Assembly: GCA_965223545.1 (NCBI GenBank)
Contig: OZ245006.1
Span: 2,176,001 to 2,240,000, forward strand
DNA length: 64,000 nucleotides
Direction of reading: 5' to 3'
Origin: Planctomycetota bacterium
GTDB lineage: Bacteria; Planctomycetota; UBA1135; UBA2386
The position numbers and the translations under genes were made by a program. This document shows, piece by piece, positions 4,030-7,955 of this stretch. The stretch's first letter is position 1; every line of letters begins with the position of its first letter. Below the pieces are notes generated by a model that made no database searches, was not told where the DNA came from, and was given only the letters and a program-made list of their open reading frames with translations.

Positions 4030-6315
4030 TCACCGAGACGGGAGCTTGGCCTCGTCGACGGCGCCACCCGCGTCGGCGACGACCCAGACGAAGTCCAGGC
4101 TAGGCGGCAGCGTGCTGAGTCCGCGCGGCAACCGCAGCGCCCGGCGCACGGTGCGCTGGCTGTTCGGGCCAAGCCGGATCGGCCGGCCGGGGTCCGACCA
4201 CAACACCGCCCCTCCGCTTTGCCCGGTGGCCGCGCTCGAGTGCGCTGCGCGCAGCTGGGAGGTGTAGACAGCCGTCGCCGCGGCCTCTCCCACGTTGCGC
4301 AGATCGGCCGAGAACAACAGGACCGCGCCCGACGGCCCGCCCACGGCGCGGACGCTTGCGGCGACGATGTCGATCGAGGGCTCGGCGAACGCCAAGGCGT
4401 GGTCGACGGGAAGATCGTGGATGGCCTGCTCGACTCCCGAAGGCCAGCGCAACGAGACCTGCTCGACGATGCGGGCGGGACCGAGCCCCCAGTGCAGGCG
4501 CGGCGACGACGAGGCCTCGAACGAGTGGTTTCGGCTGAGCTCGCGGACCAACGTCACGCCGCCAGCGATCAGGCTGGCGTGCACGCCGAGGGCATCGCGA
4601 TTGCTGCTGCGTCCGGTCAAGTCCAGGCCGAACCAGCTGCCGCGGCGCGGAGAGTCGTTGCGGAGCAAGACCTGCGCTCCCGAGACGTTGCACTGCAGGA
4701 CATCGACATCGCCATCGTTGTCGTAGTCGCCGAACGCCGCGCCCCGACCGATGCCGTCGTCGAGCTGCAGCGGCACCTCGGAAAACGTCAGCGCAGGGCC
4801 GTTGTGATGGAACAGCGTGTTGCGGGTGTTGGTGCCGTTCACCAATGGTGGCGACGCCGGCACGAAGCCGTTGGACACGTACAGGTCGAGCCAACCGTCG
4901 TGGTCGAAATCGACGAAGCCGCAACCCCAGCTCGTCGCCAACAACGGCGGCGAGGTACTCGGGTCGTAGGTGACCTCGGTGCCGGTCTGCGTGGTGATAT
5001 CGACGAACGTCGGCCCGTCGTTGCGCAGCATCACGTTGCGGCCGAGGTTGGTGAAGTAGTAGTCGAAGTCGCCGTCGCGGTCGCAGTCGCCGATCGCGAT
5101 CCCCATGCAGTAGATGGCGATGTTGGCGCCCATTGCCGCGCCGCACTCGGTGAAGTTCCACCCCCCGGCCCGGGCGCCGTCGTTGCGGTAGATCTGGTTG
5201 GGCTCGACCGTGGAGCCGAAGTCGTTGCCCAACAGGATGTCGGCGTCACCATCGCCGTCGAAGTCGGACCAAGTCGTCGCCAGCGCAGTTCCGGCACCGG
5301 CGAGCACCGGGTCGGTGACGTCGGTGAACGTGCCGTCGCCATGCCCGCGGAACAGGAAGTTGGCCGACGGCGTGTGCACCGGCGGGGATGAGCCGGGCGC
5401 GATGTAGTTGCCGACGTACAGATCGAGGTTGCCGTCGCGGTCGTAGTCCCCGAACGCCGCCGCGGTGGTGAACGTGTAGATCCCCATCGCCAGTGCCGGC
5501 GTCGTGATGTCGACGAACCGACCACCACCATCGTTCCGGTACAGCAGGTTGGGCCCGTAGCGGGCGAAGAACACGTCCGGATCGCCGTCGTTGTCGAAGT
5601 CGGCGACCGCGGTGCAGAGGTATTCCTCGCCGAGCGAGACCGCGAACGGCGACGGCGACACCTCGGCAAAGGTGCCGTCCCGCAGATTGCGATACAGCCC
5701 TGGCGTCGAGACCCCGCCCGCCAGCAGCACGTCGAGCCAGCCGTCCCCGTCGAAGTCGAGGAAGGCCCCACCGGCGCCCATCATCGTGTTGTCGTCCTGC
5801 TGCACCCAATCGATGCCGGCTGCCGCAGTGACATCCGTCAGCACGAGCTGCGGCCCCTGAGCCTCCGGCGCCTCGAATCTTCGAGCTTCGACAACATTTT
5901 CGAGGCGACGCCGCTGACATGGCAACGTCGCCGCCGCGCCGGAGGCTCGGAGAGACAGTGCCTCCTGGCTCAGCGCGGCGGCGGATGTGTCAGAACTTCC
6001 AACCCGCTCCGGCAAGAGCGGCATCCGAGTTTGGTTGCGGCCGTGGCCGCGCTGAGCCTCGGGGTCCGAGAATGTTCGAGCGGCAACAACCTTTCGGAAG
6101 GCCCGTCGTCGCCGGGACTTCGATACCGCAACTCCCGGAGGCTCGAAGACAACACTGGCGTCTGCGCTCAGCGCGGCGGCGGATGTGTCAGAACTTCCAA
6201 CCCGCTCCGGCAAGAGCGGCATCCGAGTTTGGTTGCGGCCGTGGCCGCGCTGAGCGACGGCTGCCGCCGCGATCAACGGGACGACGACCGAGACCGACGC
6301 CACGCGCCGCATCAC
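4030..6315 (-). CDS. Secreted FG-GAP-repeat / ASPIC-UnbV (CRTAC1-like) protein with an in-frame repeat insertion after the signal peptide
   Basis: Repeated DFDGDGWLD/DYDRDGNLDL/DFDHDGWLDL motifs and the ASPIC/UnbV-type LHWGLG...VSLRWPSG. Signal peptide ends AAAVAQ. The GTG start overlaps the upstream TGA. Confidence 0.88.
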   Translation of the reverse strand: MMRRVASVSVVVPLIAAAAVAQRGHGRNQTRMPLLPERVGSSDTSAAALSADASVVFEPPGVAVSKSRRRRAFRKVVAARTFSDPEAQRGHGRNQTRMPLLPERVGSSDTSAAALSQEALSLRASGAAATLPCQRRRLENVVEARRFEAPEAQGPQLVLTDVTAAAGIDWVQQDDNTMMGAGGAFLDFDGDGWLDVLLAGGVSTPGLYRNLRDGTFAEVSPSPFAVSLGEEYLCTAVADFDNDGDPDVFFARYGPNLLYRNDGGGRFVDITTPALAMGIYTFTTAAAFGDYDRDGNLDLYVGNYIAPGSSPPVHTPSANFLFRGHGDGTFTDVTDPVLAGAGTALATTWSDFDGDGDADILLGNDFGSTVEPNQIYRNDGARAGGWNFTECGAAMGANIAIYCMGIAIGDCDRDGDFDYYFTNLGRNVMLRNDGPTFVDITTQTGTEVTYDPSTSPPLLATSWGCGFVDFDHDGWLDLYVSNGFVPASPPLVNGTNTRNTLFHHNGPALTFSEVPLQLDDGIGRGAAFGDYDNDGDVDVLQCNVSGAQVLLRNDSPRRGSWFGLDLTGRSSNRDALGVHASLIAGGVTLVRELSRNHSFEASSSPRLHWGLGPARIVEQVSLRWPSGVEQAIHDLPVDHALAFAEPSIDIVAASVRAVGGPSGAVLLFSADLRNVGEAAATAVYTSQLRAAHSSAATGQSGGAVLWSDPGRPIRLGPNSQRTVRRALRLPRGLSTLPPSLDFVWVVADAGGAVDEAKLPSR
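5857..6255. repeat. A-B-A'-B mosaic of palindromic units: two identical 90-bp B units and two diverged A units
   Basis: B at 5968-6057 is identical to B at 6166-6255, each with the 12-bp terminal inverted repeat GCTCAGCGCGGC/GCCGCGCTGAGC. A units are closed by GAGCCTC...GAGGCTC. CTGAGC occurs at 5857, 6052 and 6250. Confidence 0.92.
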
Positions 6316-7955
6316 AGTCCGACCTGTGCCAGGTCGTTGTTGATTCGTTTCAGCTCGCCGGTGCGCGACGTTCCGTCGGCGAAAGTCACGGTCACCACGA
6401 GCCCCTCCATCGCGCCGCCGTTGCCCGGGCCAGTGTCGGTGTCGACGTCGAACTCGAACACCTCACCCGGGTTGAAGTCGTTGAACTTGAAGTCCAACGT
6501 GCGGAAGTCGCCCGGTGAACGGCCGAAGTTGGACCCGACCCACCCGGTCGTGCCGGCGCCGCACGGCGTGGCGGGAGTGGCCGTGTAGTCCAGACCGACG
6601 TCGACGTCGGAGCCGTTGCGATAGGTGCCCATGCACAACGGGACGTTGCTGCCGCCGCCGTCGAAGCGATCCGCCATGCCGGTCTGATTGGTGTCGAAGT
6701 AGGTCGTGTTGGGAATCGACGACCGCACCCAGTCGAGACGCAGCCCGACGACGTTCTGCGTCGAGGCATTGATCACCTTCCAGAATCCGTCGCTGTCGTC
6801 GGAATTGAAGTTGTCCGCGCCCTCGGCGCGCACGATCACCGGCGCCGCCAAGTCACCGACGAGCAAGGACCCGCGATTGGAGGTCTCCAGGACGCCGGGG
6901 TTGACCGTCGGCGAGACCACCGCGGCCTGCGTCTCGACGATCGCGCCGGCGAACTGAGGACCGGCCGGCAACGGCAGCGTCACGCTGCCGGTGCGGGCGG
7001 GAATGTTGAGAGCAGCCGGCAACGACAGCAGCGGCGTCCCCACCAAGAGGTCGCAGCCGGTCATCCCCAGCGGGGTCAGGCTGAGCTGCAGCTGGCTCGC
7101 ACCGAAGATCACCGCACCGAGCACCGCATCCGGCGGCAGGCGGGTGATGTCGATGGTGAACGGCTGTCCCAGAGTCGGCACCCGGGACACGGGCGCACCC
7201 ACGGTGAGTGGTCCGTACGACGGCCCCATGTCGTGCGGCAACCCCGCGGAGAAATCGAACGGTCCATCGTCATCGACGCCGTTGCCCCCCGACCACCCGA
7301 CGAGCGCCGTGTGCGCCATCACCGAGGCACCGTAGATCAGGCTGACCTGACCGCTGGCGTGGAACTGGATCTGCATGTTGTTGGGCGAGGTCTGCCCCCA
7401 CTCGGGCACGTTCTCCCACGTCACCCACGCCACGCTCGCCGTCTGGTCGAAGTAGACCGCGCCCATGTTGGTCGGGTCGAGGTTCATGCCGAGCACCGCC
7501 CAGCTCGGCGCGTCCTCGAAGAACTCGCGCAGCAGCTGCGGCGTCGCCGAGCAGCAGCGCGGGCTGGTGATGGTCCCCGGCTCGAGATAGACGTAGCCGT
7601 TCGACGACACTTCGATCTGGTTGGTCGACTGCAGGCCCGTGGGGTAGGGGAAGTTGAAGAGCAACGACTGCGGCGTCGAGATCTGCTCGTCGACCAAACC
7701 CAGGTCGACCGCGGTGGTGGTCGGCAGGAAGGCGGTCGAGCCGGCAAAGACCGTGTACCCGCGCCGGCCGTTGGGCACCCAATCGAGCGAGCCGACGGCG
7801 TTGAGGTCGAACGACCCCGGGGCGAAGGTCTCGTACAGCAAGCTGTCGTCCGGGCAGCCCTCGAACGTCAGCTGGTATGCCCCGGCGATTTGCGCTCGGC
7901 AGGGCCAGACGGCGACCGTCAACGCGGCCGTGGCCGCGAGCAGAGAGATGCGCAT
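6312..7955 (-). CDS. Secreted hypothetical protein (nidogen-like beta domain, lineage-type ~110-aa domain, extra C-terminal domain)
   Basis: Signal peptide MRISLLAATAALTVAVWPCRAQ. FNFPY..IEVSSNGYVYL and VTWENVPEW..QIQF segments. Confidence 0.75.
   Translation of the reverse strand: MRISLLAATAALTVAVWPCRAQIAGAYQLTFEGCPDDSLLYETFAPGSFDLNAVGSLDWVPNGRRGYTVFAGSTAFLPTTTAVDLGLVDEQISTPQSLLFNFPYPTGLQSTNQIEVSSNGYVYLEPGTITSPRCCSATPQLLREFFEDAPSWAVLGMNLDPTNMGAVYFDQTASVAWVTWENVPEWGQTSPNNMQIQFHASGQVSLIYGASVMAHTALVGWSGGNGVDDDGPFDFSAGLPHDMGPSYGPLTVGAPVSRVPTLGQPFTIDITRLPPDAVLGAVIFGASQLQLSLTPLGMTGCDLLVGTPLLSLPAALNIPARTGSVTLPLPAGPQFAGAIVETQAAVVSPTVNPGVLETSNRGSLLVGDLAAPVIVRAEGADNFNSDDSDGFWKVINASTQNVVGLRLDWVRSSIPNTTYFDTNQTGMADRFDGGGSNVPLCMGTYRNGSDVDVGLDYTATPATPCGAGTTGWVGSNFGRSPGDFRTLDFKFNDFNPGEVFEFDVDTDTGPGNGGAMEGLVVTVTFADGTSRTGELKRINNDLAQVGL

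Follow-up and report, generated by a model that had tools for sequence, protein, structure and literature searches.

A 64,000-nucleotide (nt) stretch of the genome of a Planctomycetota bacterium (the window; G000:C1:2176001-2240000, from a source genome of 8.1 Mb and 70% GC whose assembly is 91% complete) carries a gene for a secreted protein that is interrupted in frame, at its signal-peptide junction, by a 393-nt block. We consider it probable that the block consists of two tandem gene-less elements moved by the enzyme of an insertion sequence (IS), an enzyme predicted to be a tyrosine nickase of the Rep_trans fold that would act through rolling-circle transposition. The repeat and an uncatalogued IS of ~1.7 kb have the same two ends, and the repeat is therefore likely a gene-less miniature (mini) of that IS, moved by its enzyme. 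The notable part is the element family and its predicted enzyme; the in-frame position is incidental.

The host gene has an open frame throughout (open reading frame 4030-6315(-)) and encodes 761 amino acids (aa) with the insert and 630 aa without it. A first-pass annotation of this DNA had described an in-frame block of 393 bp (198 + 195), and this block is real: the 761-aa frame is open, the repeat periods are 195 and 198 nt, and the insert adds 131 aa that separate AVAQ from GPQLV. The empty Ala-Gln site that it expected in orthologs was found in 23/23 aligned proteins (P0002-P0024, the best 23 of at least 120 homologs, after the window's own protein), all of which lack the insert and have AQ-x-P-L-x-L-TDVT-like sequence directly after the signal peptide. 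The GTG/ATG start of the gene overlaps the TGA of the upstream gene, in agreement with the overlap noted earlier for the start at 6315.

4030..6315, minus strand: host gene, CRTAC1-like secreted protein (FG-GAP repeats and ASPIC/UnbV), from open reading frame, homolog and domain searches.
6253..6315, minus strand: predicted signal peptide, 21 aa, ending A-V-A, read from the sequence and the ortholog alignment.
5861..6253, minus strand: whole insertion, 393 nt, two head-to-tail elements at the host C^TCA (GC^TCAG, Ala-Gln codons) with no base duplicated, from the junction census and the orthologs without insert.

The repeated unit is polar and 195-201 nt long. The first-pass annotation had reported two identical 90-bp units with 12-bp inverted ends; the 90-nt stretches 5968-6057 and 6166-6255 are indeed identical, with 12-nt inverted ends each, but the 90-mer is one half of the true unit and its inverted ends form an internal stem. 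Folding of the 90-nt stretch beats 200/200 shuffles on the plus strand (z -3.6). A profile search of the genome gave 222 matches at 161 loci, with 113 of the units complete and 59 complete arrays that hold 1-6 units each; these loci, together with the empty site in orthologs, bear out the proposal of an unrecognised family of non-autonomous structured elements present in many copies. The half types are shuffled among complete units (B1A1 48/113, B2A2 37/113, B2A1 4/113), and the identical A halves beside unlike B halves at the host locus suggest a later exchange between neighbours.

6056..6253, minus strand: element copy 1, 198 nt, hybrid type B2+A1 (4/113 complete units).
5861..6055, minus strand: element copy 2, 195 nt, commonest type B1+A1 (48/113 complete units).
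6228..6253, minus strand: conserved 5' end of copy 1 (TCA, 6-bp hairpin, AACCAAA), the same as the parent IS end; putative origin end.
6030..6055, minus strand: conserved 5' end of copy 2; putative origin end.
6166..6255, no strand assigned: 5' half (A) of copy 1, the second of the earlier 90-bp units, from repeat and coordinate analysis.
5968..6057, no strand assigned: 5' half (A) of copy 2, the other earlier 90-bp unit, whose inverted ends are an internal stem pairing with the element's own terminus.
6054..6143, minus strand: 3' half (B2) of copy 1; putative terminator end.
5859..5948, minus strand: 3' half (B1) of copy 2, with a long stem 5859-5871/5936-5948 ending at C^TCA; putative terminator end, from covariation and the like layout of parent 3' ends.

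Each half folds into a long stem of which an element terminus is part. Both long stems covary, with 13 cells changed on both sides against 0/500 shuffles (14 copies from four sources), a count that related sequences may inflate, and long-stem pairing reaches 95% compared with 29-41% in slid controls. The element itself has no terminal inverted repeats, as its inverted repeats are internal to each half, so that it differs from a classical miniature inverted-repeat transposable element (MITE).

Several further forms of the unit were seen. Six near-identical head-to-tail units lie between convergent genes at G000:C1:5215624-5216797, and derivatives of ~36-55 nt that keep both ends (G000:C1:257780-257817 and 7153250-7153296; L087; L123) may mark the minimal ends. 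In G009, related 188-189-nt units (L011, L013, L014) sit at ATGA start or stop/start junctions and themselves provide the downstream ATG. The 39.6-kb contig G000:C2, which by eye has a phage or prophage look (terminase-, portal- and tape-measure-like open reading frames), contains no copy of the unit.

The junctions define the element to the base. At outer left junctions, position 4 is G in 115/115 cases, and positions 1-3 vary in 21, three of which resemble internal rearrangements; TGA is retained at 93/99 outer right junctions, where position 4 is variable. The element is thus G...TGA inserted at TGA^G or, on the gene strand, TCA...C inserted at C^TCA. In many G018 cases the tetramer on the left differs from that on the right, which means that nothing is duplicated; across the family the target is C^YHA, likewise with no target duplication. 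The genome contains 67 tandem junctions. The hexamer CTGAGC, previously taken as boundary and target, does not hold: the true limits are 5861-6253, the search that was expected to return copies bounded by it did yield 161 loci, but with flanking C's that are not conserved genome-wide, and the window shows no enrichment of the hexamer, with 32 copies against an expected 55. A four-base target duplication was also considered and rejected, as the TGAG at both unit ends is only apparent in view of the left and right junction variation and the G018 tetramers. As a separate observation in G018 (L094-L122), 4/4 units with the inner arm GCTCC have GAG at the adjoining junction and GCCCC units have GGG or GAG (hand count, p about 0.05), which hints that the stem either selects the target base or is corrected to match it.

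The conserved end led from the minis to an IS. A covariance model of the element gave matches in 10/90 other genomes of the family, one of which (G033) is spurious by eye, with one end far better conserved than the remainder of the element. This 26-nt conserved end occurs in 11/400 other genomes of the phylum and in 15/61 genomes of family f13, with 0 hits for reversed-pattern controls, and mostly adjoins unrelated hairpin cargo. At 2/50 loci, a single unannotated gene common to both begins about 65 nt downstream of it; at a third locus the same end lies at the edge of a contig, and at a fourth a mini lies next to a gene fragment. The parent IS so defined is ~1.7 kb long, begins with the 26-nt conserved end and has one unannotated gene of ~510 aa. 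Its 5' end and that of the minis align almost base for base, and within the family its 3' ends resemble the mini 3' ends, with a hairpin and then C^TCA or C^CCA. Five of the six parent copies in G023 are 1725-1730 bp long with both ends recognisable, and each of these ends has C^CCA. Parent copies interrupt genes at the same base step as the minis, and in at least two G023 copies joining the flanks restores open host frames with no extra base; we take these hosts to be integrase-like and WEWDG-repeat proteins. The parent gene is present in 6/91 family genomes, and 5/6 parent-bearing genera also have minis, compared with 9/41 genera overall (hypergeometric p 9e-4, with kin not independent). Scans with the middle core returned 2 genome loci and 2 metagenome loci, all minis; scans of viral contigs gave 0 and 1 loci, and plasmid scans gave nothing beyond short chance-level matches.

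The parent protein has 2006 homologs among 5720 candidates, mostly of about 510 aa, whose clusters the Atlas labels hypothetical. It has no match in Pfam, NCBIfam or PDB sequences, PF02486 (the test for Rep_trans) included, and none of the homologs among the 120 matches listed has a Pfam domain. The AlphaFold2 model reaches a pLDDT of 86.5 over its full length and of 90.1 over residues 12-394. In a structure search with the N-terminal domain, TBP, RepDE and RepSTK1 fill ranks 1-7 among 48,161 chains (Z 6.4-8.4): TBP at Z 8.4, RepDE at Z 6.9 (root-mean-square deviation 5.2, 179 residues aligned) and RepSTK1 at Z 6.4 (5.1, 191 aligned). The C-terminal 120 residues of the model match winged helices (Z about 9). 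Rep_trans proteins and TBP are described in the available text of Carr et al. (PMC4797284) as having the sheet in common, and the Rep_trans motifs are given as D, RxD, YxK and LxRxE (PMC5714925, available portions). In the parent protein, D32, D257, Y328, K330, R336 and E338 are invariant in 60/60 aligned homologs, and FDR, ATD, MYDK and LRxE, all in predicted strands, likewise do not vary; the RxD counterpart is TxD-like, and motif II was not found in this shallow alignment. The same alignment contains no conserved H-x-H (the HUH motif). The protein is thus predicted to have a TBP-like catalytic domain with D32/D257/E338 and Y328, followed by a C-terminal winged helix.

Several points weigh against this assignment and against a link between this enzyme and the copies in the window. 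The fold scores are middling (Z 6-8), and Foldseek with the domain returned nothing at E <= 0.001, RepSTK1 (E 1.4e-3) ranking behind an unrelated cyclase in the top row. The 60 aligned homologs are 57-88% identical and have many invariant columns, which makes the motif match less telling; given the middling scores and the shallow alignment, Rep_trans membership is a prediction. Furthermore, no intact parent was found in the source genome with paired ends, sub-profiles, self-BLAST or relaxed end motifs, among the matches listed. The sole homolog there (C1:1928088-1929133, detected by protein search alone) is broken, with a TAG, a frame break and the C-terminal third missing, and its 5' end belongs to another subfamily (CTA, GCGGGC stem) than the minis. 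For these two reasons, the minis' own helper is lost or unassembled in the source genome. The 5' end nearest to that of the minis comes from another family (G706, G725), and one parent query found no match in the mini-bearing genomes G017, G018, G031, G034, G082, G085 and G087. A joint leading from 6255 back to 5858 in run X3 is no evidence for a circle, since tandem junctions mimic circle junctions and tandem arrays account for it. Finally, nicking, strand choice, circles and the assignment of the origin end we infer by analogy with known systems.

On this analogy, which follows IS91 (PMC5714925; 10.1101/2025.01.24.634351) and the pT181 Reps as presented in the portions of those sources available, the parent enzyme would nick C^TCA at the conserved 5' end and stay bound through its tyrosine; binding downstream of their own nick is described for pT181 Reps (PMC4797284, in part). 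Primed by the host 3'-OH, synthesis would then displace the element strand, a further nick at the C^TCA of the 3' hairpin would free a single-stranded circle, and the circle would be inserted at another C^TCA. The arrays and the 67 tandem junctions would arise by read-through or by insertion into the C^TCA junction of the element itself, and the surviving insertions would mostly be those that spare a TGA stop or miss genes.

An assembly artefact is unlikely as the origin of the block. In contigs of runs X1-X4, unique gene sequence continues 24-27 nt into the element at both junctions, and in contigs of run X5, from another study, it continues into the element at one junction. X1-X4 are possibly the source samples, and the junction overlaps in all five runs are below the 31-letter bar for bridging; short overlaps are expected where contigs break at a repeat. 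The contig evidence comes from X1-X5, as runs X6-X8 cover too small a part of the locus. The contigs also bear on a further suggestion of the first-pass annotation, that the block is precisely removed at the DNA or RNA level and normal protein is still produced. Removal would give an exact AVAQ-GPQ, and both block ends lie at the base of strong stems. However, no joint skipping the block was found in 4 runs at 96% likeness or among the contig joints listed (contigs drop rare variants), so that excision of the DNA finds no support there, and the Rfam search of the element gave no family above threshold and three weak microRNA-like matches far under it. We give precise removal hardly any credence.

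In IS91, oriIS lies downstream of the transposase gene, unlike the conserved end of the parent IS, which lies upstream of its gene. Otherwise the likeness to IS91 and ISCR elements is considerable, as these are presented in the available text of two sources (10.1101/2025.01.24.634351, PMC5714925): the two ends differ and have subterminal hairpins, terminal inverted repeats and target duplication are both lacking, the target is short, fixed and similar to the element's own end, and copies occur in tandem. The repeat could accordingly be thought a miniature of an IS91/ISCR (Y2 HUH) element, since the lack of terminal inverted repeats and of duplication, the short target by the cut and the tandem copies are all as in IS91 (10.1101/2025.01.24.634351, available text); the genome also contains three Y2_Tnp matches, one with a 21-nt piece of unit end upstream. 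Yet the DNA downstream of the Y2 genes is unlike either unit end, the targets differ (CTTG/GTTC/GTCC against C^TCA), and the gene that has the unit's ends encodes a protein with no HUH pair and a different predicted fold. The same sources, as far as they are available, describe an HUH Y2 transposase (PF04986) and CTTG/GTTC/GTCC targets for IS91/ISCR, in contrast to the predicted TBP-like fold without an HUH pair and the C^YHA target here, and we regard an IS91/ISCR origin as highly improbable.

Spread by a RAYT or another Y1 HUH enzyme of the source genome, as a repeat of the REP/BIME/REPIN type, has somewhat more in its favour. Traits of REPs and REPINs include a GTAG/CGTC tag, a RAYT gene and IS110 elements that target REPs. 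Like them, the present units are abundant, mostly extragenic, palindromic repeats that often follow stops, form mosaic arrays and serve as an IS110 landing site; the genome has 14 Y1_Tnp matches, and one 34-nt piece of the unit core lies about 290 nt upstream of a Y1 gene. By contrast, the present unit is polar with precise ends that match a different IS, has no GTAG/CGTC tag and flanks no RAYT gene. The Y1 genes of the source genome have no profile match of the unit within 4.7 kb, and their flanks hold other hairpins; the three Y1 loci of G009 have no unit match; G087 (88% complete) has 8 conserved ends and no PF01797 match. For the IS200/IS605 version of this idea, there is no Y1 TnpA parent with the same ends, and replichore bias is absent (85/161 loci, p 0.53), a strand comparison that selection at stop codons could blur. 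Movement by a Y1 enzyme is therefore unlikely. The 232-aa Y1 HUH gene of the genome, in 12 near-identical copies (e.g. G000:C1:1354716-1355414), has upstream hairpins of its own, in which a group II intron-like insertion is frequent.

A RAYT/HUH or IS110-type enzyme flanked by the units, which had been proposed as their carrier, was not found; the IS110 elements insert into the unit, whose ends match those of the other IS, and the proposal is probably mistaken. IS110 as a helper was rejected, as IS110 copies interrupt the unit at fixed inner positions within differing unit variants. In one IS110 family (about 1.96 kb; G000:C1, 11 copies, e.g. 2860434, 4224373 and 7013194), 9-10 of 11 copies split a unit at the step from GTTTG to GTTGCGG, which falls directly within the conserved end, and this may inactivate the minis. 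A second family (G000:C1:615911, 5085731, 6851048 and 7063617) is found at CT in the B stem (4/5 left ends, 4/4 right ends). At G000:C1:66011-67466, a copy of an 11-member IS family of 1.26 kb is inserted into a unit.

Arrays that persist are mostly at stops or between genes. With our own dicodon caller in place of standard annotation (5630 genes, 87% coding), the 59 complete arrays were assigned as 25 at TGA stops, 27 intergenic and 7 inside genes, against a background among about 29,000 TGAG sites of 5.3% at TGA stops and about 74% inside genes. The landing at TGA stops proposed earlier is thus frequent (25/59 arrays), whereas Ala-Gln cleavage sites, named beside it as targets, are not preferred: 1/59 arrays uses the Ala-Gln frame, compared with 4.1% of all TGAG sites. 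A re-check added C1:6952908, in a lipoprotein N-terminus, raising the genic arrays to 8/59; of seven possible N-terminal extensions over intergenic arrays, six were unconvincing by eye, and those arrays were kept as intergenic. Of the 8 genic arrays, 4 keep an open frame (two in low-scoring genes) and 4 break the gene.

These counts also bear on the idea that the element is kept in, or steered to, coding regions, especially signal peptides, as a protein-making module like Rickettsia palindromic elements. In its favour, 89/113 complete units have a length divisible by 3, and in each of four frames 60-86 of the 89 contain no stop; two arrays stand in frame in N-terminal export signals, that of the host gene and C1:6952908, and a third lies in the hydrophobic N-terminus of a weakly supported gene. 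However, 8/59 arrays are genic against about 74% of TGAG sites, and half of those 8 break the gene. The second two-unit array in an export signal (G000:C1:6952904-6953297) is read in another frame than that of the host gene. Array lengths are multiples of 3 in 18/27 intergenic, 18/25 stop-codon and 5/7 genic cases, so that frame-keeping is not selected, and related elements in other genomes measure 188-192 nt, often not a multiple of 3. We therefore judge the module reading very unlikely, and the landing in frame at the signal-peptide junction was likely a matter of chance.

The block is likely tolerated because its units are multiples of 3 and open in the host frame and because the cleavage site is kept: with the cut inside the Ala codon and an element starting with TCA, the predicted site A-V-A/Q is rebuilt and survives the insertion. 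Basic residues behind a signal peptide are a hindrance to export. The 131-aa extension with which the mature host protein would begin is basic (22 R/K against 13 D/E), and export may be impaired. Two further features lie here, the first inside B1.

5896..5925, minus strand: weak sigma70-like match (9 of 12) facing the mature-domain coding region, a consensus match only.
6320..6345, plus strand: terminator-like hairpin, opposite strand, within the final codons of the upstream gene.

The element is probably IS91-like in action but differs from IS91 in enzyme and target, and by the features compared above it is not a MITE, a REPIN or an IS110 derivative. The parent enzyme is closest in prediction to Rep_trans/MOB-T proteins (pT181 RepC/D/E and RepSTK1), for which the available portions of PMC4797284 and PMC5714925 describe features similar to those predicted here: a TBP-like curved sheet, a strand tyrosine in YxK, and motifs resembling TxD and LRxE. 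As in Rep_trans proteins and Rep-Arvir (PMC13107129, in part), the catalytic domain is followed by a helical DNA-binding domain, a winged helix in Rep-Arvir. In contrast, the parts of these sources available describe such proteins as plasmid, phage and virus initiators and as relaxases of integrative conjugative and integrative mobilizable elements (ICE/IME), not as the sole gene of an IS, and the parent protein differs in its ~510 aa and in having no PF02486 match. Replitrons (PMC10288648) and Helitrons are likewise transposons derived from initiators, with short repeated terminal motifs and many non-autonomous copies, but are presented in the available text as eukaryotic and HUH-based. Rickettsia palindromic elements and in-frame MITEs (PMC2229807, available text) resemble the minis in being structured, 100-200 nt long, mostly intergenic and sometimes in frame, and neutral or slightly harmful. 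They differ in having terminal inverted repeats and often TA duplications, and Rickettsia palindromic elements are reported there in 19 reading frames as against 4/59 arrays here; for the present family, moreover, the parent element is identified.

More broadly, we lean towards the view that these elements represent a widespread, undescribed class of bacterial IS with a predicted Rep_trans-fold (non-HUH) tyrosine nickase. Minis of this class would need a 26-nt hairpin end and a short 3' end, borrow hairpin cargo, insert at C^YHA without duplication, amplify in tandem, and offer an open 65-aa module that can be grafted onto secreted proteins with the signal-peptidase site spared. In the literature searched, with most subscription journals and ISfinder outside the search, we found neither a Rep_trans-type transposase nor the present family, and the rolling-circle transposons IS91/ISCR, Helitrons and Replitrons are all HUH-based in the available text of their descriptions (PMC5714925, 10.1101/2025.01.24.634351, PMC10288648). 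If the prediction is true, an IS whose only gene encodes an enzyme of the Rep_trans fold, which is unrelated to HUH enzymes, would amount to a new class of transposase in which transposition arose independently from a replication initiator, and would give a function to at least 2006 unannotated proteins. Because the minis narrow the ends down to very short sequences and the target to four bases, with no duplication, the mechanism is directly testable. Taken by itself, the in-frame case is a modest one: tolerated insertions of this type are known from Rickettsia. It does provide a natural test of Sec passage by a 131-aa basic extension. For the Planctomycetota, the family explains many REP-like repeats, and is itself a landing pad for two IS110 families.

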